DNA from: Phycisphaerae bacterium | Lineage (GTDB): Bacteria > Planctomycetota > Phycisphaerae > JAAYCJ01 | NCBI GenBank assembly: GCA_041658725.1 | Contig: JBAZZQ010000001.1 | Location: 96,938-160,937, forward strand | Direction: 5' to 3' | DNA: 64,000 nucleotides | In this document: positions 7,865 through 39,510 of the stretch, piece after piece | Layout: each line of letters opens with the position of its first letter | Position numbering within the stretch: the stretch's first letter is position 1 | Made by a program: the position numbers and the translations under genes | The notes under the pieces: model-generated | What the model was told of the DNA's origin: nothing | Databases searched by the model: none | What the model saw: only the letters and a program-made list of their open reading frames with translations

Positions 7865-8060
7865 CTTAACTGAATAAAAACGTTCTTCTGATCCCTTCGG
7901 TGCGATCATAGGCAGCGCCTACGAAATATCTTACCTACCCAACACAGTGCCGGATAACTTACTAACCTCTCTCCAGATCAGCATGAGACAAGAGAACTTC
8001 ACCCATAGATCGCTTTGGACTTAACGTGCAAGAATATGCACAAACGTTTTTGTCTGTCCA

Positions 8061-8471
8061 TTGAATATGAAACCGAATAAAATATCTTTTATAGATTACC
8101 GTGGAAAGGACGCCGATATGAAACTAACCGAAATCGCCCGGGAACTTGATCTTGAACCGCTAACGCCTGAAATTCTTTCCGATGCTTCACCGGATATTAC
8201 GGCTGGGTATGTGTCCGATCTATTAAGCGACGTTTTGGCTCATGCCCCCGCGCAGGGGGTTCTGGTCACGGTCCAGGTCCACATGAACGTGATCGCCGTG
8301 GCGGTGCATGCGAATTTGACGGCCGTGATCTTCGCCGCAGATCGCCGACCCGAACCACCGGTCATCGAAAAGGCGATGGCGGAAAAAATTACCCTCTTTG
8401 TTTCGAAAGATTCCTCGTTTGCAATCGTCGGTAAGTTGTATTCTATGGGATTGCGAGGACCTTGTGCGTGA
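8061..8471 (+). CDS. DRTGG domain-containing protein (hydrogenase-cluster accessory protein)
   Basis: 136 aa with the DRTGG-like core. Order is as in known hydABC-associated DRTGG/PHP/ATPase trios. Confidence 0.55.
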   Translation: MNMKPNKISFIDYRGKDADMKLTEIARELDLEPLTPEILSDASPDITAGYVSDLLSDVLAHAPAQGVLVTVQVHMNVIAVAVHANLTAVIFAADRRPEPPVIEKAMAEKITLFVSKDSSFAIVGKLYSMGLRGPCA

Positions 8472-9205
8472 AACGCTTCCTGGCCGATCTGCACATCCAT
8501 ACCGCTCTTTCACCTTGTGCATCAGAGGAAATGACTCCGCCTGCCATCGTAACAGAATCGATCGGCCTGGGTTTACACCTGATCGCCATTTGCGATCATA
8601 ATTCGACGGGTAATATTTCCGCTGTTCAAAAAGCCGCCGGGAATAAAATCGTCGTGCTGGCGGGAATTGAAATCACGACAGCGGAGGAGGTTCACATCCT
8701 CGGTATCTTTCCAGATCCGCTATCCGCCTCCGCCGTCGGCAAAAAAGTGCTTGCCACTCTTCCCGAATCGACCAATGCGTCGCGAGGGTTCGGAGAGCAA
8801 CTTTTAATGGACGAAACCGGCAAGGTCCTCGCCACGGAAAACAAGATTCTTTCTTTCGCGTCGTCTTTCACTTTATCCCAGACTGTAAAACTGATCAAAG
8901 ATTATAAGGGTCTTGTCATCGCCTCGCACATAGATCGGCCGTCCTACAGCGTGCTAAGCCAGCTCGGAATTTTTCCCAATAACGCCGGATTCGACGCGGT
9001 TGAAGTCTCACCCGCGGGTTTGGCGTCGTCGCGTGCCGCGATCTACTCCGCTCCGGGTCTGCCCATCGTTACCTCCTCCGACAGCCACGACCTGACGACC
9101 ATCGGCACCTGCTACTCCATGCTCGAAATGAAAAAACCGACCTTTGAAGAACTGGCCCTGACGCTTAAAGGCATCGGCGAGCGGAGGATTTACAACAGTG
9201 CGTGA
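8462..9205 (+). CDS. PHP-domain (polymerase/histidinol-phosphatase-like) metal-dependent phosphoesterase
   Basis: LADLHIHTALSPCASE...IAICDHNS...IASHIDRP motifs of the PHP fold. Overlaps the DRTGG gene by 10 nt, consistent with translational coupling. Confidence 0.65.
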   Translation: MCVKRFLADLHIHTALSPCASEEMTPPAIVTESIGLGLHLIAICDHNSTGNISAVQKAAGNKIVVLAGIEITTAEEVHILGIFPDPLSASAVGKKVLATLPESTNASRGFGEQLLMDETGKVLATENKILSFASSFTLSQTVKLIKDYKGLVIASHIDRPSYSVLSQLGIFPNNAGFDAVEVSPAGLASSRAAIYSAPGLPIVTSSDSHDLTTIGTCYSMLEMKKPTFEELALTLKGIGERRIYNSA

Positions 9206-9734
9206 CCTATCCCTTCACATCCTCGACTTGATCGAAAACTCCATCCGAGCCCAAGCCACCATCGTGGCCGTCACCGTCGAGCAAAACACCCAAAAAAATA
9301 TTTTACGAATCGTCATCGAAGACAACGGCCCAGGTTTAAGCATCACCCCCGAGCAGGCCACCGATCCCTTTTATACCACCAAAGAAGGCAAACGCACCGG
9401 CCTGGGTCTGAGCCTGTTTCGCACCACGGCAGAACTTGCCGGCGGAACGCTCACCCTCGCAAAATCAAATTTAGGCGGTTTGGCCGTCGAAACTGTCATG
9501 GAATTAAATCACATTGACCGCCGTCCCCTCGGCGATCTTTCCGCCACCTTCTTTACCATCGCCTGCACCAACCCCAAAATCGACCTCTGGTGCCGATTGA
9601 TTACCGACAATCAAAATCACCTCGTGAAACTTTCCGAGATCGCCGGCGAGCTTTTCCACGAAAAACAAAATTGCTTCGCCATTGCCCAAAAATTTTCTGA
9701 AAAAATCAAAAATAAGCTGTCAATTCTTGCTTGA
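9198..9734 (+). CDS. GHKL/HATPase_c-type ATP-binding protein (histidine-kinase-like ATPase, no sensor or DHp domain)
   Basis: HILDLIENSIRAQAT...IVIEDNGPGL...GLGLSL are the N, G1 and G2 boxes of a Bergerat fold. Overlaps the PHP gene by 8 nt. Confidence 0.6.
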   Translation: MRDLSLHILDLIENSIRAQATIVAVTVEQNTQKNILRIVIEDNGPGLSITPEQATDPFYTTKEGKRTGLGLSLFRTTAELAGGTLTLAKSNLGGLAVETVMELNHIDRRPLGDLSATFFTIACTNPKIDLWCRLITDNQNHLVKLSEIAGELFHEKQNCFAIAQKFSEKIKNKLSILA

Positions 9735-19765: not shown

Positions 19766-21114
19766 ATGGTATTACAAGAATCCGAAATTCTGGAACTCAA
19801 AAAGTCCACCGCGGAATTGAAGGAAGCGGTGATTTCTATCGGTGCGATCCTGAACAAGCATCAGGGCGGCTTGCTCTATTTCGGTGTGAAGAACGATGGG
19901 ACCCCGCGGTCGGTCAGGCGGTCGGTGATAAAACCGTCCGCGACATCTCGAAGGCCATTGCCGACCACCTTGAGCCGAAGATCTACCCGGAAATCAAACC
20001 GGTAACCTTCAGCGGAAAGTCATGCATTGAGGTCCGGTTTTCTGGAAAACAAGTTCCCTATTTTGCATTTGGCCGCGCGTACATCCGCGTGGGCGACGAG
20101 GACAGGCAACTGTCCGCCAAGGGAATTGAGTCGTTTATTCTCAAGAAAAATTTTGAGGCGGTTCGCTGGGAATCCCAAGTCTCAACCCAAAACGAAAACG
20201 ACCTGGATGTCGATCTGGTCAAGCGCTTTGTCCGCAAAGCCAACCAGGCGGGACGAATCAGGTTCAAGTTTCGTTCGGTTGGAGAAACCCTGAAAAAACT
20301 CGGCCTGCTTCAGGGTGGACATATTCTTCGGGCTGCCGAGGTGCTTTTCAGTTCCCATCCGCCCCTGAAGATTCAGGCGGCGGTCTTCACCGGGACCGAC
20401 AAACTGACATTTCTGGACATCCGACAATTCGAGGGCAATCTTTTTTTCCTGCTCTTGGTGGCCGAAGAATACCTGAAAGAAAAAATGAACTGGCGGGTGA
20501 AGTTCGGAAAACTTCAGCGAGAGGAAATACCCGAGATTCCGCTGGAGGCCTTGCGGGAGGCCCTGGTGAACTCCGTGTGCCACCGCGATTATTGCTCCCC
20601 GGAAAGCAATTACCTGGCCGTCTACAAGAACCGGATCGAGATTGAAAACCCCGGCGAGTTCCCAGAAGGGTTTGAGCCGGAGGATTTCATTTACAAGGGA
20701 GAACGTTCTGTTCTTCGTAACCCCCTGATTGCCGATGTGCTTTATCGCACACGGGACATCGAGAAATGGGGGTCCGGGCTCAAGCGGATTCACGACGAGT
20801 GCGCCGGGCACGACATCAAGGTGGAATTCCAGAAGATGAAGGCTGGTTTTAAGGTGGTCTTTTATCGAAGCGTTCCTACGGCACAGACGCCTCCGACACC
20901 TACCCCCCAAACTACCCCCCAAACTACCCTCAATATTCAAGCCACGATTTTGGCACTGATTCGGGAGATTCCGGCAATCACGAAGGAAGAACTTGCCCGA
21001 CGGTTGAACCTGACCATCGACGGGATCAAGTACCATATCCGCAAGCTTCGAAGACAAGGCGTACTGCTTTGGGAAGGCCCCAGCAAGGCCGGGCATTGGA
21101 AGATCAAGGCCTAA
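19766..21114 (+). pseudogene. AlbA_2 (Schlafen-like, divergent AAA) / HATPase_c_4 / C-terminal wHTH protein ('RecG C-terminal-like' putative regulator), interrupted by a frameshift near 19905
   Basis: The N-terminal AlbA_2 motif (ESEILELKKS...LLYFGVKNDGTPR) is in one frame (19766-20005). Continuation (GQAVGDKTVRDISKAIADHLEPKIYPEIKPVTFSGKS...MGDEDRQ...) is in the +1 frame up to 21114. The shift lies inside the tandem ggtcggtcaggcggtcggtg. Confidence 0.6.
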
Positions 21115-26738: not shown

Positions 26739-28376
26739 TCATTGTAAATTCTCCAATTCAACTCCATGCCACCGCGATCCTCGACCATACCCACGCATCT
26801 GCACCTTGCCTTCGGCTTTCAGCCCCTGAAGCAAGTACTTCACCTGGGTCTCAGACAGGAAACTGAGCACTTGGTGCAGGTCATGCAGTGGCGCGCCTTC
26901 CGATCCGCTGTCATGGATGTGTTTGAGGAGTAACTGACGGTTTGTCTCGCGATCCAACCCCTTCTTGCGGGTGTAAACCCCCGCCTTGCCCACTGCCTGA
27001 TGATATCGACGCGACAGCAGGTAGCGAACACCTCGTCCACGGCCGAGACTTTCAATAATCCCCTCATCGACCAGCGATTGAAGTACCGGTCGTAACTCAC
27101 CCTGGACCGCCTGCTCCCGTCGCAACGTATCCAGGACCAGCAGTTCGTGGGTGGTGAATACCGCCGCACGTTCAGGCCCGATCTTTTCCAGAAATCGCAA
27201 AAACCCGGGATCCTGCAACTGTCCGTGGAGCGTCAGCGAAACCTGATAGGCATCTGTTTGCGCGAAGTCCGGCAGTGGCTTGCTCTGGCGAATCGTCTCT
27301 TCAAATATGCGGTTCAGCCCCTGCCCCGCCCGCTCAACCAAACCGCAACGGGCAAAGCTGTCTACCAGCCGGCGATTCCGTGGCGACTGCCTATCAATAA
27401 TGTTCTCCACCGAGATGCCCGGCGGAAAGCCACCGGGACTGACAATCTCCAACCGGCGCGGATACTGGCGGATGAACACTGACCCCTGGTTGCGGTAGTC
27501 GCGATGGCCGACGGCATTGAGAATAGCTTCACGGGTGGCCGCCTCGCTAAATGTCGGCACATCCAGCATGAACAGGCCATCCTGAAAATGCTGCAGGTCA
27601 TTGCGGAGATTGATCGTTTCCCAGAGCTTGTCGTACCACGCAAGAAAGCCCCAGCGAAACTCCACACGTTGGCTGGCCGGGCCCGAGGCCTGCGTCGAAC
27701 GGTACTCAAAGATCACCTCCGCATTGGCAAGGTATCGGCCTATTGCCGGGTGCGTTCCCAGCAGAATCAACGCCGCATACGTGATTCTATCTTTGTCCGT
27801 CAGTTCAGCATCGGCCAGAAGCTGTCGGATCGGCAGGTTGACCAGGACCTGATTGCCGGATTTCCGCAGCCACCGCTGGCGAAACTCTTCAATGGCGACC
27901 GGGTCCAGATCATCCAGAACCGCCCCCGGGCATAGCTCCGCCGAAAAATCCGGACCGGATTCATCGAAAATCCGTTTGATCTGATCGGGCGTCATCGCCA
28001 CCAGATCTTGCCCACCACGCATCCAGTAGGCGCCCTCAATAGCAATCGGCATCCCGATCGGGCGCGACGGCACCCGAAAGACCAATACCCGTCCGTGGGG
28101 ATGCCGCACTTCATCCACCTCCACCCGCAGCCGCAACCGCTCAATCAGCCCCGCCCGCGTACGTTCGAGCGGGTCAAAGGCCATGCTCCCGACAACGCGG
28201 CGCGGTGGCCGGTCGCTTACCCCCAGGATCATCAGGCCACCGCCCTCATTCGCAAGGGCGGCGCAGTACGTGACCAGCTTCTCAAAATGGAAGTTGTGCT
28301 TTGCCTCCTTGAATTCCAGATGCTCCCCCTCCGGAGCATTCATCCAGTTCTGAAGTTGTGCCAGTGATGTCGGCAT
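26739..28376 (-). CDS. AlbA_2 (Schlafen-like divergent AAA) / HATPase_c_4 / C-terminal wHTH protein ('RecG C-terminal-like' putative transcriptional regulator)
   Basis: 545 aa. N-terminal EGEHLEFKEAKHNF...GGGLMILGVSD (AlbA_2), central AILNAVGHRDY (HATPase_c_4), C-terminal winged helix. It is an intact paralogue of the frameshifted gene at 19766-21114. Confidence 0.7.
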   Translation of the reverse strand: MPTSLAQLQNWMNAPEGEHLEFKEAKHNFHFEKLVTYCAALANEGGGLMILGVSDRPPRRVVGSMAFDPLERTRAGLIERLRLRVEVDEVRHPHGRVLVFRVPSRPIGMPIAIEGAYWMRGGQDLVAMTPDQIKRIFDESGPDFSAELCPGAVLDDLDPVAIEEFRQRWLRKSGNQVLVNLPIRQLLADAELTDKDRITYAALILLGTHPAIGRYLANAEVIFEYRSTQASGPASQRVEFRWGFLAWYDKLWETINLRNDLQHFQDGLFMLDVPTFSEAATREAILNAVGHRDYRNQGSVFIRQYPRRLEIVSPGGFPPGISVENIIDRQSPRNRRLVDSFARCGLVERAGQGLNRIFEETIRQSKPLPDFAQTDAYQVSLTLHGQLQDPGFLRFLEKIGPERAAVFTTHELLVLDTLRREQAVQGELRPVLQSLVDEGIIESLGRGRGVRYLLSRRYHQAVGKAGVYTRKKGLDRETNRQLLLKHIHDSGSEGAPLHDLHQVLSFLSETQVKYLLQGLKAEGKVQMRGYGRGSRWHGVELENLQ

Positions 28377-29173: not shown

Positions 29174-29379
29174 TTTTTCCTCCAGCCATACTCACTTTTG
29201 GAGCCTGGCTCATGTTTTTGGCCAGGCTCAAGAATAAATCGGATACTGAAGCCGGTCTTCCCGATGTTCGATTCAAATTTGATACGTTCTTTACTGTGAC
29301 GTTCCAGCGTCCCCTCGAACCTCGGACGCCGAAAAAAGGCTTCAGCGTAAACTTCAGAGAAAACTTCAGTACAAACTTC

Positions 29380-29607
29380 ATGGTAAAAGGTCGGCAACTT
29401 GAGCGAATGCTGGCGGCGATTGAAATCGTGGCGGGCGGAAAGATCCTCAACGTTGCGGATTTGGCCCGCGTCTTTCAGGTCTCGCCGCGGACGGTATTCG
29501 AAGACTTGCGGCGGCTTCAGAAATGGGAAATTCTTGCGTTTGAAGGTCCCCCCAAAACCGGACGGTATGCACTGACTGAAACCGGCAGAAAAATGATTAC
29601 CCGGTGA
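29380..29607 (+). CDS. Small HTH (DeoR/HTH_11-like) DNA-binding protein
   Basis: ILNVADLARVFQVSPRTVFEDLRRLQ is a helix-turn-helix of the DeoR-N/HTH_11 type. The ORF track begins at 29212, but the conserved part begins at the Met at 29380. Confidence 0.45.
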   Translation: MVKGRQLERMLAAIEIVAGGKILNVADLARVFQVSPRTVFEDLRRLQKWEILAFEGPPKTGRYALTETGRKMITR

Positions 29608-29759: not shown

Positions 29760-30149
29760 TCACGATATTGGTTCAAGCAATGGTTTCACAGGCAGCACAA
29801 ACAGCTCGTTTGGCATCTCTCGCAGGTGCCGAATCGCCTGTCGATGCCAGAGGATTTCGTGTTTCAATTCCCCAATGGCTTCGGTGTGGCGATGTCGGTG
29901 ATACGGGGCGGCGGCTCGGGAAGCGGCGGGCGGCTTGGTGTAGGCTGGCGGGTGGGCAGGTCGGGTCTGGATGAATCCGTCGTACACCAGCCAGAACATC
30001 TGGAGGCATGCCGGGCAGAGCAGCGCATAAGCGTTTTGAGTGCCTTGTATGTCCGTCAGCACCAATTGCCGATAGCCGATGCCGGGATCGGTCTGTCCGC
30101 ACTTGGCACATTGGATACGGTAACGGGTGGATTTGGTTTTCTTGGTCAT
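29760..30149 (-). CDS. Zinc-ribbon protein (CAKCG...CPAC), last gene of the Ubl-system operon
   Basis: Two CxxC pairs spaced ~27 aa apart, then a Pro/Ala-rich segment and a C-terminal helix. Function unknown. Confidence 0.35.
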   Translation of the reverse strand: MTKKTKSTRYRIQCAKCGQTDPGIGYRQLVLTDIQGTQNAYALLCPACLQMFWLVYDGFIQTRPAHPPAYTKPPAASRAAAPYHRHRHTEAIGELKHEILWHRQAIRHLREMPNELFVLPVKPLLEPIS

Positions 30150-30239
30150 GGTTTTGTCCTTTATAAATACGGGTTCATGGATTCGATCACGAAAATACCC
30201 GCAACCGGGTGAGCGGCTGCGGATAATAACGCGAAATAA

Positions 30240-30911
30240 TTAATGGGATTCGGCAACCGTCAATTCACTGGTCAGCAAATTGAATTGAATGTCCGAATCA
30301 ATCGGCAGATTTCTCAACCACTTGGCAAACTGGGCGATCATCAGGCCGGCAGCGATATTCGCACAGTAGATGGTCGTCTTGGCCGTGCAGGCGCCTTGAT
30401 GGGCTTCCTCAGCGGCAAAAAGCGTGGTTGGGTAGTGCTTTCGGGAAACCGGGTCGCAGGCAGTCAGAACTCGAAGGACTTCGGCGGACATTCTTCCGTC
30501 GCACCAGAATTCTACCTGGTCCTTCACCGAGTCCCAAAGGAGTTTTCGGGTCTCGATTTTGTCAACACAGATAAAAATAACATTGCCGACCTTGGTGCTT
30601 CGTTTGAATCGCTCGGGAACCCGGACGATATCAACTTGGCCGTTGATTCGCCAGCAGTCCTGGGCGGTGGCATTGACTTTCAGGGCCGAAAGCGATTCCT
30701 CCAGGTAGCCTTGGCTGGCCAAGTTATGGATTTCGACCGTATCAAAATCCAAGAGTTGCAAACACGAGACTCCCATCGCCGCCAGTTGCAGGGCGACTTG
30801 CCTGCCAATGGCTCCGACGCCGATCACCGTCACTTTGCATCGGGCCAGTTTTTCCGGCGGGATTATGTCCTTTTGCCGGATAAAGCGTTCATTATCAGTT
30901 TGTGCATCCAT
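30240..30911 (-). CDS. E1-like ubiquitin-activating enzyme homologue (ThiF/MoeB/HesA family, short form)
   Basis: KVTVIGVGAIGRQVALQLAAMGV is a Rossmann nucleotide loop; FDTVEIHNL; CTAKTTIYCANIAAGLMIAQ. 223 aa, the size typical of phage-defence-associated or Ubl-operon E1s rather than MoeB. Confidence 0.7.
   Translation of the reverse strand: MDAQTDNERFIRQKDIIPPEKLARCKVTVIGVGAIGRQVALQLAAMGVSCLQLLDFDTVEIHNLASQGYLEESLSALKVNATAQDCWRINGQVDIVRVPERFKRSTKVGNVIFICVDKIETRKLLWDSVKDQVEFWCDGRMSAEVLRVLTACDPVSRKHYPTTLFAAEEAHQGACTAKTTIYCANIAAGLMIAQFAKWLRNLPIDSDIQFNLLTSELTVAESH
30259..30306. repeat. 48-bp direct repeat, copy 2 (inside the 3' end of the E1-like CDS)
   Basis: See copy 1 at 28836-28883. Confidence 0.7.
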
Positions 30912-30963
30912 AAAAAGTTCCTTTCCGTCGCGTTCCGCGACTTAAATGATATTACGGGTCTTC

Positions 30964-31284
30964 TCATTCCAGGCCGCCGAACTCTTCGGCTTTTTCCCAG
31001 AGGTATTCGGTGCATAACCAGCGGGTCCGAACCTGGCAAGCAGGATTAATCTTGCGGAAGGCTTCGGTGAACCGCTCATGGGCTTCCGCTTCGGTTTCAC
31101 CACCACACAGCGATCCCGACCCACCCCAATGGACATACGGCTCATTGTGCTTGTCGGTTTGAATCTCACAAAAGCCCTGGTCCCAGCCGGACTCGCTCAT
31201 CACCCGGCAGACCTGTTCCATACTCAAGTCCTTGACTTCCACTCTCACTTCATAGCAGCGACTCATAAAAAAAACTCCTTTCAA
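30964..31284 (-). CDS. Hypothetical small protein within the Ubl operon
   Basis: 106-aa ORF (probable start MSRCYEV) ending ...EEFGGLE. No recognised domain. Confidence 0.3.
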   Translation of the reverse strand: MKGVFFMSRCYEVRVEVKDLSMEQVCRVMSESGWDQGFCEIQTDKHNEPYVHWGGSGSLCGGETEAEAHERFTEAFRKINPACQVRTRWLCTEYLWEKAEEFGGLE

Positions 31285-31293
31285 AAGTTGCGG

Positions 31294-31998
31294 TTAGTAG
31301 TTCCACCACCAGGGGTTGTCGGGGTCTTCGAAGCCCCATGCTCTTTCGTCGAATTCCTCAATCTCTTCTTCCGGCCAGCCGGTTGCGAGTTCGGCCCGTT
31401 CTTCCGGGGTCATTGACTGCTCTTGAATTCCTCGCCATTCCTCGGGATGGATATTGGCTTTGTATTCCTCGATCCAGGCCGGTTGATCCGCGGCGAGGAA
31501 GGGTTTGTCATAATCCACTTCGACTGGGATCAGAACCTGTCCACCGGGACCGACGTTAAAACTGATCCGGGCGTAGGTTTTTCCTTCCTGAGCCACGATA
31601 AACATAATGCTCCATTGACACTTCCCGAAAACTCGCCGGAATGTCTCTTCATCGGTTCCGCTTGGATTTGGACAGTTGCCGGGGTGAGTATGGACCCAGA
31701 TTCTTGCGAATTGTTCGGGTTTTCGGCCCTGGTCCACCCGTGTTTCAAAGAAATCGGCAACGGCGTTATCATCGAACGATACGCTGACGCAGGTGACCTG
31801 CTGTTTCACCGTTTGAAAATCGTGGATGTAGAGCAAGTCATCCGGTGGGGTGATGCCGAAGCCGCCGATCTCGGTTTCACCGGCATCGCGAAAGAAGAGC
31901 AGTTTAGCCCAGGCGGTTGGGCTGAAGCGAAGGGACAGCGTTTTTCCGGTAAACGTTTCTTCTTCATCAAACCGCGGTCGCAGTATCCGCACTTTCAC
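31294..31998 (-). CDS. JAB/JAMM-family metallopeptidase (deubiquitinase-like)
   Basis: E(TEIGGFG)...[17 protein letters not shown] gives the E-x(n)-H-x-H-x7-S-x2-D JAMM zinc motif. The ORF track extends to 32133 and overlaps the upstream gene by 167 nt. A GTG start at 31998 or 31992 is more plausible, so the start is uncertain. Confidence 0.65.
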
Positions 31999-33088
31999 AT
32001 TCGTCTTGGCATTCGGTTCCGGTGTCTTCTCCGGTTTCGGATCTGGAGACACTTCCGACTTTGGTTCCTTCGGTTCGGGTTTCGGACTCACGTTCGTTGT
32101 TTCCACTGGATTCAACATTTTCATTTTCCTCACTTTCGGTTTTACAATTGGGACAAATTAATTCATTATCATCCATACACGAAGTACAACATTTCTGACC
32201 ACACTCTTTGCAGGTCTTGAGACAATCCTTACAGACTCTTTCTTCGCATTCGGGGCAACGATCCAGACAACTCAGACATACGGTGGTGTCGCACGAATGG
32301 CAGTAGCTGGAACATTCCTCGCAGAATTCCCGCGAACAAAACTGGCAAAAATAGACATAGTCTTCTGACATCTCACTTCCACACTCATAACACGACCGGC
32401 CATTCCAATCCTCGATCGTTACATACGCAGAGGCAGCGTTATACGTGTTCAGAATGTTTGAGACCAGAGTGAAAAAGTCATAGATGCGGCCTTCGTGTAA
32501 TGCCATGTTGATGGCCGCTGATCCATCGCCTTCGCACAATCGATCACTGCTGACGTGCGGGTGAGTGACCTCATCGTTCGAACTCGCTGTGTGCGGGTCG
32601 CAGGCAAAAACGTAGTAGCTTGCCTGGTCATAGTGCCGCCAGAGATTTTTCACTTCCAGTTGAATCTGAAAGGATCCCAGGTACAGGTCATCGAGTTCGA
32701 TCGGCTGGGTATCCACAGACAGATGGTTTTCCTCAAAGTCGTAGGAAAATTCCTCGAATTCATCCTGGACCTGTAAAAGTTCTTCGTAGATGGTTCGCAC
32801 GGCAGGTAAAGTGAATTTAGGGGCCTGGGAAAGCTGCTGAAGATCGCCGACGGCATGAGACACGAAGTACAAATCGCGGTTCATCCGATCGCGGCAACGT
32901 TCCGCCGCGGCTGACCATGTGCGATTAATCGATTGTGCCAATTGCTTACTCGTTTGAGTAATGTCGGACAGTTGGCTGGAGACGTTGCTCATCCGCTGCA
33001 ATAGTTCTTTGTAGCGATGCTGATGGAGTTTTACCAATTCATCGAGTATGCGATCTGCGATTCGAAACAGTTCTTTAGGGGTGTACAT
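31967..33088 (-). CDS. E2-like (UBC-fold) protein fused to a C-terminal Cys-rich multi-CxxC zinc-finger array
   Basis: [15 protein letters not shown] resembles the UBC HPN-x(6-8)-C active-site region. The C-terminal 100 aa carry about ten CxxC pairs (CYECG, CQFCS, CEEC, CHSCD, CLSC, CPEC, CKDC, CKEC, CTSC, CPNC), then an acidic tail. Confidence 0.5.
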
Positions 33089-33176
33089 AAAATTACCTCA
33101 TACAAAAATAATGTGGGGCATCCGCCCGTCTTTACGCAAAACAGACGAATGCCCCGATTGGTCATTTGGACACGTT

Positions 33177-33407
33177 TTACGAAGAGATTCGCGCGCCCTC
33201 AATTTTCGTTGGAGTGCAGGTAACGCGGTCGCCATCCTGCAACACGTAGTTTTGGGGCACGGGTTGACGGTTCACGCGAATAAGATACTCCGTGGGTTCA
33301 CGATCCTGCATCTGAGTTTTGAAAAACTGATGCATCGTGGTTCCTTCGTTGATGGTGACATAATTCGCGTAGCCGCCTCCGTCATTATTGATCCATAATA
33401 TTCTCAT
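33177..33407 (-). CDS. Ubiquitin-like beta-grasp protein (ThiS/MoaD-like Ubl) with a short C-terminal extension after the conserved Gly
   Basis: 76 aa. ...YVLQDGDRVTCTPTKIEGARISS matches the ThiS/MoaD pattern L-DGD-V-h-P-h-GG, but continues 5 residues past the Gly. Confidence 0.55.
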   Translation of the reverse strand: MRILWINNDGGGYANYVTINEGTTMHQFFKTQMQDREPTEYLIRVNRQPVPQNYVLQDGDRVTCTPTKIEGARISS

Positions 33408-33600
33408 GATTTGATCCTTTCGAATAAAAGATATTTTTAAAAATACGAATACAAACTCGGAAAATCAAAGTTGATTTTGTCATAGCAATCCGCCTTACAC
33501 AGGCGGACCGCGCGCAAAGAGATTCTGTAGTTTTCTCATAAATTTCCTTTCAGGGTAAAAATGGTTTATTGAGGTTTGAAATTACGGTAGGTTTTGATGG

Positions 33601-34086
33601 TCAGGCGAGATGGTTTTCGTTGGGTTTAAATCGTTGCTGGATTTCTAGCAGGACTTTTTTAGGCAGGTGCATGGTTTCGACCCGGTCGTTGGTGTGTTTA
33701 ACATACGCTGTCCACCAAACCTCCAGATTTGAAATCTGAATCGTCTGGCATTCGACCCTTGTGAAAACGGTCTCGACAAATTCCGGATCGGCTGTTAGGA
33801 GTATCGGTTCACCGCCGGGAACGTCACAAGGGTGGTTCCCCCGGATGTCCTGGACCGTTTCCATCTTGTCGTTGTAGCATAGATATCGGGCATGGCAATC
33901 CCATTGTTCGATGTTGTAGATGCTATCGTCTTTCTTGTACATTCGGGCTACGATGTCCATGTACCGGAGGATGTCCCTCACATATTCCAGTGTCATTGGG
34001 ATCAGGCAGTAATCAACGTTGCTTTCCAGATACTCATTGGTGCAGGAAGTATCCAACATGATGTGAGTGATTGGTGGCTTATTCAT
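33601..34086 (-). CDS. Hypothetical 161-aa protein (Ubl operon)
   Basis: No recognisable domain. Its start overlaps the upstream gene's stop (ATGA). Confidence 0.3.
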   Translation of the reverse strand: MNKPPITHIMLDTSCTNEYLESNVDYCLIPMTLEYVRDILRYMDIVARMYKKDDSIYNIEQWDCHARYLCYNDKMETVQDIRGNHPCDVPGGEPILLTADPEFVETVFTRVECQTIQISNLEVWWTAYVKHTNDRVETMHLPKKVLLEIQQRFKPNENHLA

Positions 34087-34742
34087 CGGCCACCTCCCGG
34101 ATCACGGCGGATCATTTCGTTGCTTTTTCCCTTGGCCCAATCCTTCAATTGATAATTCAATGCTTCCAGGGAATCAGCAATCGTGTCGCCCACGCCGAAA
34201 CAATTCGGAAACGCCTTCGAAAAATCCAGCGGTCCTTCATACGCCCAGGCCTCAAATGGTCCATGGGTGCTGGGATCGTGATGGTTTTTGACCAGCAGGA
34301 TAAACCGATCTTTTACCAAAAACCGATCCGACCGGGTCTGTGTCATCCGACTATGGATTGGTTGTGTGTTTGAAATACCCTTTTGACAGTTTACTTCCAC
34401 GCTGAGTCGTTCATCGTGTTCATCGAGCCATTTTGCAACGGCATCCTGGGAACAGGAACCTCGGTAGCCTTCGTTGTTCCGCAGATAACCGGCCACCGTC
34501 TTCCAGGCCGATGTTTCGTCTAAAAGTACCCGGACATAGGCCACAATCCCGCGATCCGCAATCGCCACGATCCAAAATTCCATTTCCTGAATTCGCATTC
34601 CACCGTGCTGGCAGCCGATGGTATAGGCTTCATGACACGGGATACAAAATGTTCGCTTCTGGTCCGAAGGTTTGCGTACCGACACCGGTACTTCCTTGGC
34701 ACCCGGACTCTCACAGTATTGAATTTCGCAAAATTCATTCAT
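34083..34742 (-). CDS. Zinc-ribbon protein with C-terminal HicB-like (UPF0150) domain
   Basis: N-terminal CEIQYC...CIPCHEAYTIGC. The C-terminal AWAYEGPLDFSKAFPNCFGVGDTIADSLEALNYQLKDW resembles the HicB/UPF0150 core (PGC...G-T-EEAL). Confidence 0.35.
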   Translation of the reverse strand: MNEFCEIQYCESPGAKEVPVSVRKPSDQKRTFCIPCHEAYTIGCQHGGMRIQEMEFWIVAIADRGIVAYVRVLLDETSAWKTVAGYLRNNEGYRGSCSQDAVAKWLDEHDERLSVEVNCQKGISNTQPIHSRMTQTRSDRFLVKDRFILLVKNHHDPSTHGPFEAWAYEGPLDFSKAFPNCFGVGDTIADSLEALNYQLKDWAKGKSNEMIRRDPGGGR

Positions 34743-34825
34743 GGTTCATCACCATCCTTTCTTCTTTTAAAAAGTTGATCTTCTGTAAAAGAACATGTGC
34801 GAATTGCCCGTCTGTCTTGGCTTTG

Positions 34826-36844
34826 TTAGCGATAAGAGGAAATAGTTTCTTCCGCGGTCGGGAAATCTCCATGGCCGGGATGATAGTGATCAATTATCCG
34901 TTCAATCAAGTCGTCCGGCAGTAAAACCCGTCCTTCCCAAATCGCGAGATACTTTTTAAAAATGGATTTGGGCAGGTGGATTTCATTCTGCCAATTTGAT
35001 CCGAAAAGGTCGGTGGCTAGTGTTTCGGCCATGAATTCCTCGGGTTCGATATCGGGTTCCGCTCGGGTGAGCCAGGCTCGGATCTTTGGCTCCAGGTCGG
35101 GGTAAACGATGCGACCGATGTCGCGGAGCAGGTGAGCGACTTCTTCCTGGAGCGACCGGCCGTCCAGACAATTGGCGGTGTCATAGACATGAAGCATGAT
35201 CCGACCGGTCTTGTAGTCCACCTCGTATTTTCCAAAGATGCCGTAGGGGACGTTGTTCTGATATGCACCGCAAAACCGCTGCTGAAGTTGAAGCGTGGTC
35301 GGCTCCGGCACGGCGTCGTGATACAGGACCTGAACACCCCGGGCCAAGGACGGCTGGGATTGCAGCCAGTCCAGGATGGGCCGATGGGACTGGGGCGGTT
35401 GTCGGTCGGCAGGAAATCCGCCGGGCTTAAATTCCAAGTCGGTAAAGATGACCGGTAGGGTCGGCGTGAGGGGATTCTTGACCATTTGCTGGACCTTTTC
35501 GTCCCAGGTTGGCCAGGATTGGAGTCGAGGAATGCCTCGTGGCCGGTTCTCAAGGCCCTCGGCCACCAACTCGTTTTCTTTTTCCACCCGGCGGCGCTCC
35601 AGCTCTTTTCGCGAGAGGAGGCCCTTGGTTCCCACAAACTGTCTCCGGAAACCGTCCCCGGTGTTCCAGGCCAGGTAGTAGTGCTTTCCGCTGTACATGC
35701 AAACCCCCACCTTCGGTCGAAGCATCGTGTGCCATTGATCCGGGGGGATCTCCAGAGAGCGTCGGATCCGCTGGAGCATTTTTTGCCGCTTGGAGTAGCC
35801 GACCTTTCCCAACCGTTGGCGGTGGATGATTCGCGCATCGCTGCGAGCGTGCCAAATGGCATACCAGTCTTGGCCAATTCGTTCTTCCCAGACCGGAGGA
35901 CGGCGGTAGACTTCGTCAGCTCGCTGGTGAGCAATCTGCCGGGCATTTTCCCAGGCGGCCTTCATCGCTTGCCGATGCTCGGCCTCGCCATGTTTCCAGA
36001 GGTACGACCAAGTATTGACGTTCAAGGTGTTGGCGGTCTCGATAAATTCGTCCAACGTGCGGGTCGCCTCATCACGGAGGTTAGAGACATTCGGATTGTG
36101 CAGTTGCCAGGTTGCAAGGTCCTCCAGGACCCGTTCCATTCGCGAGGTTCGGATGTTGCCGGTAATCATCACGTTTGGTTTGCCTTCATAGGCCAGTTCT
36201 CGGTCCCAGGACTCGCCGCGAAGGCGCCGCATGGTCGGTTCATAGGTCGAGTCTCCATCATGGTGACTGAATTCCGTCAGATCGTGGGAAACGATGTTTC
36301 CCGTCCGTTTGAGGTATTCGCGAATCTTCTCGATGGTGTGGTCACCGGGGAGTTTGGCCCCGCGTCCGCGTTCAGAGAGGGAAAACGAAAAGATCGCTTC
36401 GTGGATCCCCGAGCGGATGCCGCTTTTGCCGTCTTTGGGTATCCGGCCTGCCAGCATGACGTGACCGAGGGATTTATCCACGGCCTTCGCTTTTTTTTTA
36501 AAGCAGGCGATGTAGTCGCCAGCCCCCGGCCGCGTCAGATTGTGGCGGACGATCAGGTAGCCCTGGTGGACCAGTTCATTGGCGTACTGGAGGACCCACT
36601 GATTAATAACCGAATCGGGGAACTTAAAAAAATATTTTTGAAACAAGAGGCGAATCACCCAGAGCACGTTCTCCCAGGGCGAGTCTTGGGGGTACTCGTA
36701 TGGCCAGTTTTCCGGTTTGGTCTGGAGAAAGTCATCCAATGCCTGCTGGGCCTGGATTACATCCAGCGAAATGGTTGTCGGTTGTGACGGACGGTCTGTT
36801 TGCAGAGGTTGGATGAAATAATATTCAGATCGTAAATGGTGCAT
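34826..36844 (-). CDS. Large uncharacterised protein (~672 aa), first gene of the Ubl operon
   Basis: Long ORF with a good AAAGGG RBS before the Met at 36844 (ORF track begins at 36958). No motif I can assign. The antisense 433-aa ORF is rejected. Confidence 0.4.
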   Translation of the reverse strand: MHHLRSEYYFIQPLQTDRPSQPTTISLDVIQAQQALDDFLQTKPENWPYEYPQDSPWENVLWVIRLLFQKYFFKFPDSVINQWVLQYANELVHQGYLIVRHNLTRPGAGDYIACFKKKAKAVDKSLGHVMLAGRIPKDGKSGIRSGIHEAIFSFSLSERGRGAKLPGDHTIEKIREYLKRTGNIVSHDLTEFSHHDGDSTYEPTMRRLRGESWDRELAYEGKPNVMITGNIRTSRMERVLEDLATWQLHNPNVSNLRDEATRTLDEFIETANTLNVNTWSYLWKHGEAEHRQAMKAAWENARQIAHQRADEVYRRPPVWEERIGQDWYAIWHARSDARIIHRQRLGKVGYSKRQKMLQRIRRSLEIPPDQWHTMLRPKVGVCMYSGKHYYLAWNTGDGFRRQFVGTKGLLSRKELERRRVEKENELVAEGLENRPRGIPRLQSWPTWDEKVQQMVKNPLTPTLPVIFTDLEFKPGGFPADRQPPQSHRPILDWLQSQPSLARGVQVLYHDAVPEPTTLQLQQRFCGAYQNNVPYGIFGKYEVDYKTGRIMLHVYDTANCLDGRSLQEEVAHLLRDIGRIVYPDLEPKIRAWLTRAEPDIEPEEFMAETLATDLFGSNWQNEIHLPKSIFKKYLAIWEGRVLLPDDLIERIIDHYHPGHGDFPTAEETISSYR

Positions 36845-36988
36845 AGTTTTGCCCTTTCTGTAAAATGTAAAAAAGAAAAAAGCCCCGCACATGGGCTGCG
36901 GGGCTTGGTTGGGGCGCATAAAAAAGACGCCGACGCGGCGTTTTGGCCCCAGATACAAAGTGGAATCTGTCAGATTGCTCGATGCCGT

Positions 36989-37846
36989 TTATTCATCCCG
37001 GAACATCTCCGGCTCGATTTTTTCCAAGGCAGTCGGCTTGAACCATAGATCGCGTTCGATCGGCAATCCCATCGGTCCGGTCGTGGTTTCCAATTCGGAG
37101 AGTGAAAAGTACCCAAGCTCTTTCTCCATGCCGAGGACCAATCCGAAAAACATGTCCTCACCGTCATACTCAGTCGCGAGCCAAGTAAAATTACTTGATG
37201 GAGTGAAGAATTTACAATACGCGATGGCTTTTCCACCCTTGCCGTCCTGGCTGTAGAGGGCGGGGATCTGCTTTCGCAGTTCCTCCGTCATCAGTTTGTG
37301 GCCACGTTTGGTCTCGTTGCCGCGGATTTGAACCGTTACACCATTGGTGGATACAGCGTTTTCCACCGGAATGCCAACGGCACTTGCCATTTCACCCAGG
37401 AATGCGGCCATGTTCTGCCGCTGTTCGGTTCGTGAGATTGGGTCCGATTCAATATAAGGAATCGGCGTGCCAATGATTTCGATCCGATTGGGTTCCGGCT
37501 CGATCACTACCCGGCCGTTTTCTGTACTGAACCATTCTAGATATACATCTTTGCCATAGTCGAATGGTGGGCCGCCGGATGTGATGTCTCCGACCTTTCC
37601 CGTTTGGGTCAGGGAAAAGCCTTCCAGATAGCTTGCCGCTTCTGGATCGTCCGCTTTGCCTTCTCCGGTAAAGCGAATCTTCGCTCCGCGAATATCGCGG
37701 TGGAAGTTGCCTTCCAGATCAAATGTTACGTTCTCGTTCAATCCGGCAAATTTGATATATCCGGTTACTCTATTTGGTACCGAATTATCAAGCTCGCCCT
37801 CGATAACCTGTTCTGTCGGTCGCCATGCCATAATAGTTTTCTCCAT
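36989..37846 (-). CDS. DUF2958-domain protein
   Basis: The C-terminal CKFFTPSSNFTWLATEYDGEDMFFGLVLGMEKELGYFSLSEL...GLPIERDLWFKP matches the conserved DUF2958 block found on plasmids and conjugative elements. Confidence 0.5.
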   Translation of the reverse strand: MEKTIMAWRPTEQVIEGELDNSVPNRVTGYIKFAGLNENVTFDLEGNFHRDIRGAKIRFTGEGKADDPEAASYLEGFSLTQTGKVGDITSGGPPFDYGKDVYLEWFSTENGRVVIEPEPNRIEIIGTPIPYIESDPISRTEQRQNMAAFLGEMASAVGIPVENAVSTNGVTVQIRGNETKRGHKLMTEELRKQIPALYSQDGKGGKAIAYCKFFTPSSNFTWLATEYDGEDMFFGLVLGMEKELGYFSLSELETTTGPMGLPIERDLWFKPTALEKIEPEMFRDE

Positions 37847-38649: not shown

Positions 38650-39510
38650 TCACCGACTTGTGGTTCTGAGCGTCTGTACGCCATGTTTCCGAATATATCG
38701 ATGCCCCTCCCGCTCGATCGCGGCCTTTAGTCGCTCCAAGACGTCATTGGTTTCCCCTTGCCTTCGGGCTGCCAGGGCTCGCCGGACTTCAATCATCCGG
38801 TCGTCCCCACAATCTATCCGGTAGTGCAGGTCGTGACAGCCTGCCGGCCGATATTCAAATCCGACCACCTCGCCGCCGAAGTTTACCAGCACGTTGTCAT
38901 TGTCCATGAAGGAGAGAATGCGCTCATGCCAAGGATCCCAGTGAGCCGGATTCACCGCCGCTAGGCGGCATCCCAACTCGGGATAGACCGTAGCATGGGG
39001 GTCCACGAAAGGAATGCTCGGCAAATCTCGGCCGTCCAGCGACACCCGCATTCCGGAAAAGACGGCATTGATCTCCACCAGGTCGATGGTCCACGGGTCA
39101 TCCGGGAATTCCAACTCCGTCCCCTCCCTTATTCCCGGATCGGCTCGCACCGCCAGAGGCTGCCCGGTCCATTCGTTGGGGCCAATCCGCACCCGCTTGC
39201 CTCGGGAGCGGACGATCAGTTCCCGCGGGGCCAGGCAAAGCAGACCCACCCCAGGCGGGTACTCGTACGCTTCCCGGTTCTCCTCTCCGCCGAAGTTACG
39301 GCGGTCCAGGATCGTGGAGAAGTCGGCGATCCCCCGGCCGTTATCTCGAACGATGATCCGGTCGTTTCGGTTAATGATCGCCACCTTTGTGGCCCCCGCC
39401 CGGCAGGCGGTTTGCAGGATCTCAATCACCCGCCCTTCCCGCGATCCGGTGAAGAACCGATCGTGTTTTTGTACAAGCCGCGACCTTGCCGCGGCGTCCA
39501 TGGTTTCCAT
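38650..39510 (-). CDS. GHKL-superfamily ATPase-like protein (HATPase_c fold N-terminus) with uncharacterised C-terminal region
   Basis: VIEILQTACRAGATKVAI...IIVRDNGRGI matches the N-box/G1-box of Bergerat ATPases. Confidence 0.4.
   Translation of the reverse strand: METMDAAARSRLVQKHDRFFTGSREGRVIEILQTACRAGATKVAIINRNDRIIVRDNGRGIADFSTILDRRNFGGEENREAYEYPPGVGLLCLAPRELIVRSRGKRVRIGPNEWTGQPLAVRADPGIREGTELEFPDDPWTIDLVEINAVFSGMRVSLDGRDLPSIPFVDPHATVYPELGCRLAAVNPAHWDPWHERILSFMDNDNVLVNFGGEVVGFEYRPAGCHDLHYRIDCGDDRMIEVRRALAARRQGETNDVLERLKAAIEREGHRYIRKHGVQTLRTTSR

Follow-up and report, generated by a model that had tools for sequence, protein, structure and literature searches.

A four-gene ubiquitin-like conjugation cassette, most likely a backbone module of Planctomycetota integrative elements

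Introduction

Nine open reading frames (ORFs) on the minus strand (29760-36844) of a planctomycetal mobile-element-like island raise the question of which of them form a functional unit and whom this unit serves. They lie in a window, the whole 64,000-nucleotide stretch of DNA that was analysed, for which a first-pass annotation had proposed a nine-gene operon with a complete toolkit of a ubiquitin-like protein (Ubl), E1, E2 and JAB peptidase. Each of the nine ORFs was found where claimed, and the presence of a complete toolkit in a mobile-element-like island was supported. The real unit is a four-gene cassette in the order Ubl, E2-zinc-finger protein, JAB, E1; the other five ORFs lie outside it.

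Results and discussion

The four proteins of the cassette and their genes

The features of the cassette are as follows.

33177..33407 (-), Ubl precursor, 76 aa, ThiS-like beta-grasp
33192-33197 (-), Ubl G71-A72, within the C-terminus ...TPTKIEG71-A72 that precedes a 4-residue tail, RISS
33115..33155 (-), stem-loop between Ubl stop and E2 start, 18-bp stem and T-rich tail
31967..33088 (-), E2-zinc-finger protein, 373 aa
32828-33079 (-), E2 N-terminal helical hairpin, residues 4-87 (~90 aa)
32414-32800 (-), E2 UBC domain, residues 97-225
32534-32563 (-), E2 HPH-x6-C185 motif (H176, P177, H178, C185)
32144-32392 (-), E2 ten CxxC pairs, residues 233-315, followed by a disordered acidic tail at the C-terminal end
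31294..31998 (-), JAB/JAMM metallopeptidase, 234 aa, start GTG at 31998
31870-31872 (-), JAB predicted active site, E43
31651-31692 (-), JAB predicted active site, H103 to D116
30240..30911 (-), minimal E1-like adenylating enzyme of 223 aa with one ThiF domain
30804-30821 (-), E1 GxGxxG
30387-30389 (-), E1 invariant Cys175
30196..30225 (-), terminator-like hairpin directly after the E1 stop, 12-bp stem and T run

Among genome loci anchored on the E2, 56 of 57 have the Ubl gene upstream, 42 of 42 have JAB downstream and 39 of 42 have E1 downstream. Since genomes were scanned with one peptide pattern, both the number of cassette loci and their taxonomic range are lower bounds.

Pfam ThiS was matched by 35 of 36 members of the Ubl family (best 8e-7), with TGS and Ub-Mut7C as further matches, and this family evidence agrees with the earlier description of the 76-aa protein as beta-grasp-like. 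G71 and A72 are invariant in the family. The tails that follow GA are variable and range from 0 to 51 residues among 61 homologues, 50 of which carry 1-51 variable residues beyond the invariant pair. Such a precursor tail parallels type II BilA, which is cut at G97|A (PMC10557695), and the pro-ubiquitin of Caldiarchaeum, which is cut by Rpn11 (PMC5654768). A hairpin of -20 kcal/mol or stronger was obtained for the Ubl-E2 gap in 53 of 60 related loci (median z -5.5) and covaries, as RNAalifold gave 14 pairs, 6 of them with compensatory changes. The conserved stem-loop is a putative attenuator or terminator.

For the 373-aa protein a UBC fold had been proposed, in line with the predicted model, whose best structural matches are eukaryotic E2s. 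The HPH...C motif read in the first pass was likewise recovered, with a spacing of x6 instead of the x7 given there. The zinc array is RING/B-box-like; its matches (E 5e-4 to 1e-5) are partly compositional, since they fall in cysteine-rich sequence. The JAB gene overlaps the 3' end of the E2 gene by 32 nt and encodes the complete JAMM motif noted before (E43...H103xH105x7S113xxD116), which is invariant across 61 homologues. Pfam Prok-JAB was matched by all 31 members tested, and the best PDB matches of the JAB profile were the Rpn11-like protein of Caldiarchaeum (2e-5) and RPN11 (1e-4), followed by CSN5.

The assignment of the 223-aa protein as a ThiF-like E1 rests on a Pfam ThiF match above the curated cut-off (2.2e-21) and on residues invariant in 53 homologues (GxGxxG, D55, D57, K78, D117 and R122). 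Its best PDB matches are MoeB, ThiF and UBA5, and its 223 residues contain no CxxC zinc site, rhodanese domain or ubiquitin-fold domain (UFD). The 100 nt after E1 outfold all 60 shuffles in 39 of 52 related loci, and the hairpin located there likely marks the end of the cassette transcript.

The cassette occupies a fixed place in most related elements

The island extends over ~20.0-41.4 kb of the window and is bordered by housekeeping genes. The ArdC-N, AlbA_2 and DUF2958 neighbours reported earlier were all confirmed, DUF2958 being the marker of the element backbone.

36989..37846 (-), DUF2958 protein, element backbone marker (Pfam 1.3e-15)

Of 75 E2-anchored loci, 30 have DUF2958 on the upstream side of the cassette, and the cassette was located downstream of DUF2958 in 20 of 23 metagenome loci anchored on DUF2958, with a variable stretch of 0.4-8 kb between them in related elements. 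This fixed place beside a variable stretch is the behaviour of a backbone module and not that of swappable defence cargo. In Planctomycetia the same cassette is found in a second backbone (AAA ATPase c33, c40, c34), and tyrosine integrases, a Cdc6-like ATPase and a HerA/TraG-like ATPase lie near the cassette in related elements. Several genomes carry 2-3 copies, and the source MAG has a second one (P0005). An integrase was not found with the window copy of the element and its X286 gene is about half-length, so this copy may be decaying. Taken together, a family of Planctomycetota integrative elements with DUF2958 and ArdC-like genes most likely carries the cassette as a near-constant module of its backbone. 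Because of this near-constancy, the most probable role of the cassette is to serve the element in genetic conflict, and a Ubl-conjugating module that does so by protein tagging is the reading that we consider probable, if by no means secure.

A defence system is the other of two live readings. The cassette would then be element cargo that benefits the host by anti-phage defence of the Bil kind, and during infection the Ubl would be conjugated to a structural protein of the phage. It matches the BilA-B-C-D parts and their order and follows the same precursor-tail logic (PMC10557695), and a defensive role is the general prediction for such operons (PMC10557695, PMC11601596). The window island further encodes a homologue of the PADLOC candidate PDC-S62 (2e-57) and AlbA_2/HATPase_c_4 proteins, and the constancy of the cassette in related elements is compatible with a defence role. 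However, the PADLOC models of BilA, BilB and BilC found no match in the cassette, BilD reached only 20.5 bits, and its IAD and CYS domains are missing from the cassette E1. The fixed place described above is unlike that of hot-spot cargo, the cassette adjoins anti-restriction-type (ArdC-like) genes, and it is present in multiple copies in several genomes. Defence on behalf of the host is thus rather unlikely, though it deserves consideration.

The neighbouring ORFs are variable or orphan

The remaining ORFs had been regarded as partners of the Ubl machinery.

36880-36906, terminator-like hairpin between DUF2958 and A672
34826..36844 (-), A672, 672-aa protein, variable neighbour
34083-34742 (-), B219, 219-aa protein, lineage-specific, in the variable stretch from DUF2958 to Ubl
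33601-34086 (-), C161, 161-aa protein, lineage-specific, in the same variable stretch
30964..31284 (-), G106, small ORF (100-106 aa) between JAB and E1, not a conserved part of the cassette
29760..30149 (-), I129, CxxC...CxxC protein of 129 aa, downstream of the E1 terminator

If all nine genes formed a single operon and a novel system, A672, B219, C161 and the two small ORFs would act as effectors or sensors. The nine genes share a strand with short gaps or overlaps, and B219 (70% identity), C161 (79% identity) and I129 are retained in the closest relative, L076. Yet related loci keep only Ubl-E2-JAB-E1, no part of the element varies more than the region upstream of the Ubl gene, and terminator-like hairpins follow DUF2958, the Ubl gene and E1. 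A672 and G106 are near-orphans that are missing from every related locus. For A672 no homologue other than itself and no match in Pfam, PHROG or PADLOC was found; it is weakly similar (~21% identity) to a family at other positions in related elements. G106 is absent from 78 of 78 related loci, in which either JAB directly adjoins E1 or other DNA intervenes, and had only one homologue among 5.8e9 proteins. B219, C161 and I129 are lineage-specific. Relatives of B219, whose "HicB-like" label is backed by no HMM, often stand directly after DUF2958 in related elements, while C161 and I129 occur in only a few loci: relatives of C161 in a few related elements, and I129, which gave only weak zinc-ribbon matches and is not conserved with the cassette, in L076 alone. 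The nine-gene operon is already largely refuted by these comparative data, and a nine-gene system is very improbable.

Instead of conjugation, the Ubl and E1 could act in cofactor or thionucleoside synthesis as a sulfur-carrier pair of the ThiS/MoaD and ThiF/MoeB type, a reading that can practically be dismissed. In its favour, the only HMM matches of the Ubl are ThiS-type and the best named matches of the E1 are ThiF and MoeB. Against it, the E1 reaches only 68 bits for NCBIfam ThiF (cut-off 159) and 57 for MoeB (cut-off 266), the Ubl has GA and a tail at its C-terminus in place of GG, both are in every case linked to a UBC-fold E2 with a Cys and to a predicted-active JAB, the cassette resides in a mobile element, and ThiG, ThiH, MoaE or rhodanese genes were found neither in the window island nor in related loci.

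Proposed mechanism

The preferred reading is a conjugating backbone module in the service of the element. The analysis established the folds and families, invariant catalytic residues, conserved gene order, precursor tails, hairpins and element context; each chemical step, the target and the function of the zinc array as an E3 we infer. The 76-aa Ubl would be made as a precursor, from which JAB would remove the variable tail after Gly71-Ala72. The E1, a bare ThiF-type domain and presumably a homodimer like MoeB, ThiF or UBA5, would then adenylate the new Ubl C-terminus; its invariant Cys175, for which a catalytic role is a guess, may hold the Ubl. Subsequently, the Ubl would be handed to Cys185 of the UBC-fold E2, whose RING/B-box-like array of ten CxxC pairs and N-terminal helical hairpin would replace an E3 in target selection and/or in stimulated discharge onto lysine. 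JAB could also reverse the mark, and the conserved hairpin that follows the Ubl gene would maintain a surplus of Ubl relative to the enzymes. The tagged proteins may belong to the host, to rival elements or to phages.

Comparison with known systems

BilABCD are bacterial ISG15-like anti-phage systems of Type I/II, type II corresponding to Iyer class 6c. As in the cassette, Ubl, E2, JAB deubiquitinase and E1 each have a gene of their own, in this order, the Ubl is made with a short variable tail past a conserved Gly (G97|A in E. aridi BilA, the invariant G71-A72 here), and an E1-to-E2 thioester relay is predicted (PMC10557695). The earlier view that the set is not the described Bil set held, as PADLOC gave only generic JAB and E1 matches. 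The E1 of the cassette is a 223-aa single adenylation domain instead of IAD+AAD+CYS with a zinc site, its E2 has, besides a classical-type HPx...C motif, a helical hairpin of ~90 aa and a zinc array of ten CxxC pairs, its Ubl is a single ThiS-like domain, and it is located in Planctomycetota element backbones.

The 'eukaryote-like' operon of the Caldiarchaeum/Asgard type comprises ubiquitin, E1, E2, a small RING finger protein and an Rpn11-like JAMM, and related operons are reported from Planctomycetes, Actinobacteria and Acidobacteria (PMC4197634, citing Burroughs et al. 2011). Shared with the cassette are a modifier made as a precursor, whose trimming by a JAMM is predicted for the cassette, an E2 Cys preceded by a His-Pro-x motif and a RING-clan zinc module paired with the E2; moreover, the best solved match of the cassette JAB profile is the Rpn11-like protein of Caldiarchaeum, and the E2 model matches eukaryotic E2s best. 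In contrast, the modifier of the cassette is ThiS-like, has no ubiquitin-family match and ends in GA rather than GG, its zinc module, instead of being a small RING on its own, is joined to the E2 as a long array of multiple knuckles, and its E1 is devoid of a ubiquitin-fold domain at its C-terminus.

The PRTRC cassette (ParB-related, ThiF-related) of proteobacterial ICEs and plasmids probably corresponds to Iyer class 6d. It resembles the present cassette in its Ubl/E1/E2/JAB-type set and as a standing part of integrative/conjugative elements. NCBIfam PRTRC A-F had no matches in the cassette (PRTRC_ThiF 21.8 bits, cut-off 144.75), which lacks a ParB gene, and its E2 has the His upstream of Cys that class 6d E2s lack (PMC1779556). 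It is not the set of CBASS either (NCBIfam Cap3 18.6 bits, cut-off 200): compared with type II Cap2/Cap3 it has no CD-NTase, and E1 and E2 are unfused. Bub (class 6e) uses Ser/His oxyesters and a JAB-E1 fusion (PMC11601596), whereas the cassette E2 keeps a predicted catalytic Cys; the cassette has no poly-Ubl. Distinct from Bil, CBASS, PRTRC and Bub by HMM or architecture, the cassette is most likely a Bil-like conjugation cascade.

A conserved four-gene cassette in the window

The first-pass annotation had proposed a nine-gene operon for ubiquitin-like conjugation, probably a defence or conflict system, and an ORF listing confirmed the nine ORFs on the minus strand at 29760-36958. Four of them (Ubl, E2, JAB and E1) are referred to here as the cassette, and the other five are named by their length in aa.

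Features of the cassette and its surroundings in the window
34826-36844, minus, A672, 672 aa
34083-34742, minus, B219, 219 aa
33601-34086, minus, C161, 161 aa
33177-33407, minus, Ubl, 76 aa
33115-33155, minus, hairpin with an 18-bp stem and a T-rich tail, between the Ubl and E2 genes
31967-33088, minus, E2, 373 aa
31294-31998, minus, JAB, 234 aa, GTG start, 32-nt overlap with E2
30964-31284, minus, G106, 106 aa
30240-30911, minus, E1, 223 aa
30196-30225, terminator-like site with a 12-bp stem, after E1
29760-30149, minus, I129, 129 aa
21397-23367, minus, DUF6880/SWIM protein, about 7 kb from the cassette

The E2 of the window is WC975_00605, encoded on a 189-kb contig of a Phycisphaerae MAG (100% identity), and a second, partial E2 copy (P0005, WC975_16800; 88% identical) lies on a 2.7-kb contig of the same MAG. 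At 31967-32133 the long GTG-started JAB frame overlaps the disordered acidic tail of E2 in a different frame, an overlap that can be aligned in close relatives too. The GTG at 31998 is most likely the true JAB start, and about 140 nt of the overlap may be dual coding. Convergent to the end of the cassette lies a gene for a small winged-helix protein (29212-29607, plus strand) with weak MarR/GntR/WYL-type HTH matches, which is a possible local regulator.

To follow the genes across relatives, one genome per species was scanned, giving 75 loci that were nearly all labelled Planctomycetota (Phycisphaerae, Sedimentisphaerales, Pirellulales, Planctomycetaceae and Thermoguttaceae). Where the flanking DNA sufficed, Ubl was directly upstream of E2 in 56 of 57 loci, JAB was downstream of E2 in 42 of 42 and E1 in 39 of 42; the order and strand of Ubl-E2-JAB-E1 were constant wherever the genes were present. 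Several genomes contained two to three cassette copies. Since two cultured strains, Rhodopirellula sp. SM50 and Maioricimonas sp. JC845, are among the carriers, the cassette is open to experimental test.

The remaining five ORFs behaved differently. None of the 75 loci contained C161, G106 or I129; B219 occurred in five and A672, weakly, in three. The closest relative (E2 72% identical) retains B219, C161 and I129 and is without A672 and G106. Among 5.8 billion protein clusters A672 found only itself and G106 a single homologue. Pfam, NCBIfam, PADLOC and PHROGs gave no usable function for A672, C161, G106 and I129, nor for B219, be it the HicB-like one of its earlier label or any other. The toolkit is complete, and the operon consists of four genes: the Ubl-E2-JAB-E1 part of the proposal stands, while A672, B219, C161, G106 and I129, being poorly conserved, are dropped as members.

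E1, JAB and Ubl

The E1 matched Pfam ThiF with 76.6 bits (cut-off 28.1) as one domain spanning residues 20-202, after which the protein ends directly, without a CxxC zinc site or an extra domain. Its Gly loop and Asp/Lys/Arg ATP-binding residues place it in the ThiF/MoeB adenylating superfamily, and G31xG33xxG36R37, D55, D57, N63, Q67, K78, D117, R122 and Cys175 were invariant in 53 homologues. The nearest solved sequences were MoeB, ThiF and UBA5. Against the NCBIfam equivalogs the scores were 68 for ThiF (cut-off 159) and 57 for MoeB (cut-off 266).

The JAB of the window alone gave weak matches (Prok-JAB 9e-4, PADLOC JAB 5e-5), and Prok-JAB was matched by all 31 family members tested. E43...H103xH105x7S113xxD116 was invariant across 61 homologues, which assigns the protein to the JAMM/MPN+ metallopeptidases with their E...HxHx7Sx2D zinc site. 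The best solved matches of the family profile were the Rpn11-like protein of Caldiarchaeum (2e-5), yeast and human RPN11 (1e-4) and CSN5.

For the Ubl, a putative beta-grasp protein of ThiS/MoaD type, the Pfam ThiS match (E 0.003, 18.6 bits) lay below the curated cut-off of 22.5. ThiS was matched by 35 of 36 family members (best 8e-7), most of them below that cut-off, and all other matches of the family were to beta-grasp families. The C-terminal ...TPTKIEG71-A72 was invariant. Among 61 homologues, 11 end at the GA, 35 continue for 1-2 and 15 for 3-51 residues, all of them variable, which is a classic precursor pattern.

An E2 domain fused to a predicted zinc array

By sequence, the E2 fold found no match in Pfam (28 members searched), NCBIfam, PADLOC or PDB sequence profiles. 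In an alignment of 40 sequences H176-P177-H178-x6-C185 was invariant, and ten CxxC pairs were located at residues 233-315. In the AlphaFold model of the full-length protein (pLDDT 87), residues 4-87 fold into a long helical hairpin; beyond it come an alpha/beta domain and beta-hairpin knuckles in a row. With its alpha/beta fold and a catalytic Cys after His-Pro-x the protein belongs to the UBC/E2 fold superfamily, so that the UBC fold, on which the earlier reading of this 373-aa protein hung, is supported.

The zinc region matched the C-terminal RING-like finger of TFIIH p44 (1.4e-5 from the single sequence, 5e-4 from a profile), and further matches were obtained to the MID1 B-box and to FYVE/PHD-type folds. 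The spacings of the first three knuckles (x11, x4) equal what we take to be those of p44. These matches predict that the region is a RING-clan-like multi-zinc array, which might confer E3 activity.

Searching 1.84 billion proteins with a profile of the E2 domain yielded 2,290 cluster representatives (50% identity), 788 of them at E<=1e-30, and nearly all of the best 150 of the 2,290 had the architecture of about 350 aa. Rare variants deviate from it: one has ankyrin repeats after a shortened zinc region (P0216), one is duplicated in tandem over its whole length (P0108) and one has a trypsin-like protease domain at the N-terminus (P0160). These variants fit a role of the C-terminal part in target recognition.

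Hairpin and putative terminator signals

In 53 of 60 related loci, the spacer of about 85 nt between the Ubl and E2 genes folded into a hairpin with an energy of -20 kcal/mol or lower (median z -5.5). RNAalifold on 22 spacers returned 14 pairs, of which six showed compensatory changes, such as GC/AU at 11:9 and AU/CG at 13:9. The stem sequences vary from clade to clade (L001-L073). The 100 nt past E1 folded better than all shuffles in 39 of 52 related loci, and further terminator-like sites of the window follow DUF2958 and I129. Taken together, the hairpin and terminator data indicate that the conserved unit is Ubl, hairpin, E2-JAB-E1 and terminator. The hairpin may set the ratio of Ubl to enzyme as an attenuator or terminator, or it may be an inverted-repeat protein-binding site.

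The cassette in a probable integrative element

In the window, the cassette lies in an island of about 20.0-41.4 kb that is flanked by housekeeping genes and further encodes DUF2958, an ArdC-N/M78 protein, two AlbA_2/HATPase_c_4 proteins and the DUF6880/SWIM protein, which matches the PADLOC candidate PDC-S62 (2e-57). One HATPase_c_4 protein (26739-28376, minus strand) combines this 'RecG C-terminal' domain with an AlbA_2/Schlafen domain, the other (20089-21114, plus strand) with a winged HTH, and a region common to both proteins matches PADLOC models associated with Argonaute (E 1e-10 to 1e-17). A 286-aa ORF (X286; 38650-39510, minus strand) is about half as long as its homologues, proteins of about 545 aa encoded ahead of DUF2958 in related elements. 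The window contained neither an integrase gene nor a backbone gene of Cdc6-like or HerA-like type; this copy of the element looks degraded, with the cassette intact.

A layout that recurs in related loci begins with a small integrase, the long form of X286 and DUF2958, followed by a variable array, Ubl-E2-JAB-E1, small unknown genes, a Cdc6-like ATPase and a HerA/TraG-like ATPase. The variable array contains tandem paralogues of the neighbour-gene family c7, ArdC-like, DUF6745 and B219-like proteins and, in some cases, a group II intron. The DUF2958-to-Ubl stretch varies in length from 0.4 to 8 kb and looks like an array of accessory or anti-defence genes. The c7 proteins, of about 100-200 aa and unknown function, contribute as many as seven paralogues in tandem to this stretch (examples are L016:7000-9600, L018:5500-9400 and L087:4100-8400), and in two related loci a c7 gene lies between JAB and E1. 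G106 was considered as a diverged c7 member and rejected, as the profiles of c7 and 13 other neighbour families do not match it. A reverse transcriptase of group II intron type (RVT_1, RVT_N, GIIM) is encoded immediately ahead of the Ubl gene in L014 and L060 (about 7900-9630). In Planctomycetia the cassette follows other genes, for an AAA ATPase and two unknown proteins, and tyrosine integrases lie close by.

As an independent check, metagenomes were searched with the DUF2958 protein instead of E2 as seed. The cassette followed DUF2958 at a distance of 0.4-8 kb in 20 of the 23 loci whose downstream DNA extended over at least 7 kb. Carriage by plasmids or phages was rejected: E2 was absent from 72,556 plasmids (PLSDB) and 50,697 phage records (INPHARED), and was found on one of 2.9 million IMG/VR viral contigs.

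Proposed cascade and role

Stepwise Ubl cascades were demonstrated in type II Bil (PMC10557695) and in Caldiarchaeum (PMC5654768). By analogy with these, and judging from folds, invariant residues and gene order, JAB would cut the Ubl tail at or beside G71-A72, the minimal E1 would adenylate the Ubl, and the Ubl would be handed on to Cys185 of E2. Targets may be selected by the zinc array and helical hairpin of E2, and JAB could remove the mark. With the hairpin behind its gene, the Ubl would be made in excess of the enzymes.

On balance we consider it probable that such a cascade serves the mobile element, as the cassette is a constant of the element among variable neighbours and adjoins genes of anti-restriction type. 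That the cassette is instead host-defence cargo resembling Bil, with which it shares its gene order, is an unlikely though serious alternative, set against this same constancy. A system of all nine genes, some of whose extra members the closest relative retains, is unlikely in view of their poor conservation elsewhere. A sulfur carrier of the ThiS-ThiF or MoaD-MoeB kind, to which the ThiS-like Ubl would point, is likewise unlikely and was rejected, because the E1 falls far below the ThiF and MoeB cut-offs and no sulfur-transfer pathway genes were found in the window or related loci.

A broader version of the element-serving reading, which we put forward tentatively and hold to be possible rather than probable as a whole, is that the Ubl cascade is a core life-cycle module of an undescribed, abundant family of Planctomycetota integrative elements, with an E2-E3 hybrid as E2. 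In the hybrid, a UBC domain of the classical HPx...Cys type would be fused to a series of zinc knuckles resembling RING and B-box fingers, and the element would use the cascade for tagging host defence proteins or rival invaders, or for controlling its own proteins. If this is true, the cascade would be a 'ubiquitin weapon' of mobile elements instead of a form of host immunity, and its eukaryote-like E2 and Rpn11-like enzymes would represent a bacterial lineage that bears on the origin of E2-RING cooperation.

Bacterial Ubl conjugation is a young field in which, to our knowledge, CBASS-Cap2, Bil and Bub alone have been worked out, all read as anti-phage immunity. Every part of the cassette is a different version: a bare 223-aa E1, an Rpn11-like JAB, a ThiS-like Gly-Ala tag and an E2 of classical appearance that is fused to a zinc-finger array of its own. 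Large as this E2 family is, neither Pfam nor NCBIfam nor PADLOC has a model for it. The fusion would be a minimal model of E2/E3 cooperation. The cassette behaves as a fixed part of the integrative-element backbone and not as swappable cargo; its use for establishment of the element or for counter-defence would be a new use of prokaryotic Ubl tagging.

Comparison with known systems

With Bil the cassette shares the Ubl-E2-JAB-E1 gene order and a Ubl precursor tail after a conserved Gly. As the first-pass annotation had supposed, the gene set does not match the described Bil set: BilD alone was matched in PADLOC (E 3.8e-5, 20.5 bits), and the BilA, BilB and BilC profiles gave no match at E<=0.1. 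In about 450 aa, BilD combines two adenylation domains, one inactive and one active, with a mobile Cys domain (PMC10557695), whereas the cassette E1 is a single ThiF domain of 223 aa. In contrast to type II CBASS, the island is without a CD-NTase and E1 and E2 are separate genes, not fused; JAB scored 18.6 against the NCBIfam Cap3 cut-off of 200. The E1 reached 21.8 against the cut-off of 144.75 for PRTRC_ThiF, the other PRTRC A-F models gave no match, and the ParB homologue of PRTRC is absent. The literature on DUF2958, PRTRC and leading-region links to ThiF yielded nothing decisive. The poly-Ubl, the JAB-E1 or E2-E1 fusion and the Cys-less E2-like protein of Bub/class 6e are not features of the cassette.

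Compared with the Caldiarchaeum-type operon, the cassette Ubl matches ThiS-type families alone and ends in GA, not GG, the zinc module is fused to E2 instead of forming a separate small RING protein, and the E1 lacks a C-terminal Ubl/UFD domain. Operons related to that of Caldiarchaeum occur in Planctomycetes, according to the statement in PMC4197634 that cites Burroughs et al. 2011, and the planctomycete cassette family may perhaps already be mentioned there. The cassette would therefore work like Bil and the archaeal Ub/E1/E2/RING/Rpn11 operon, yet belongs to neither.
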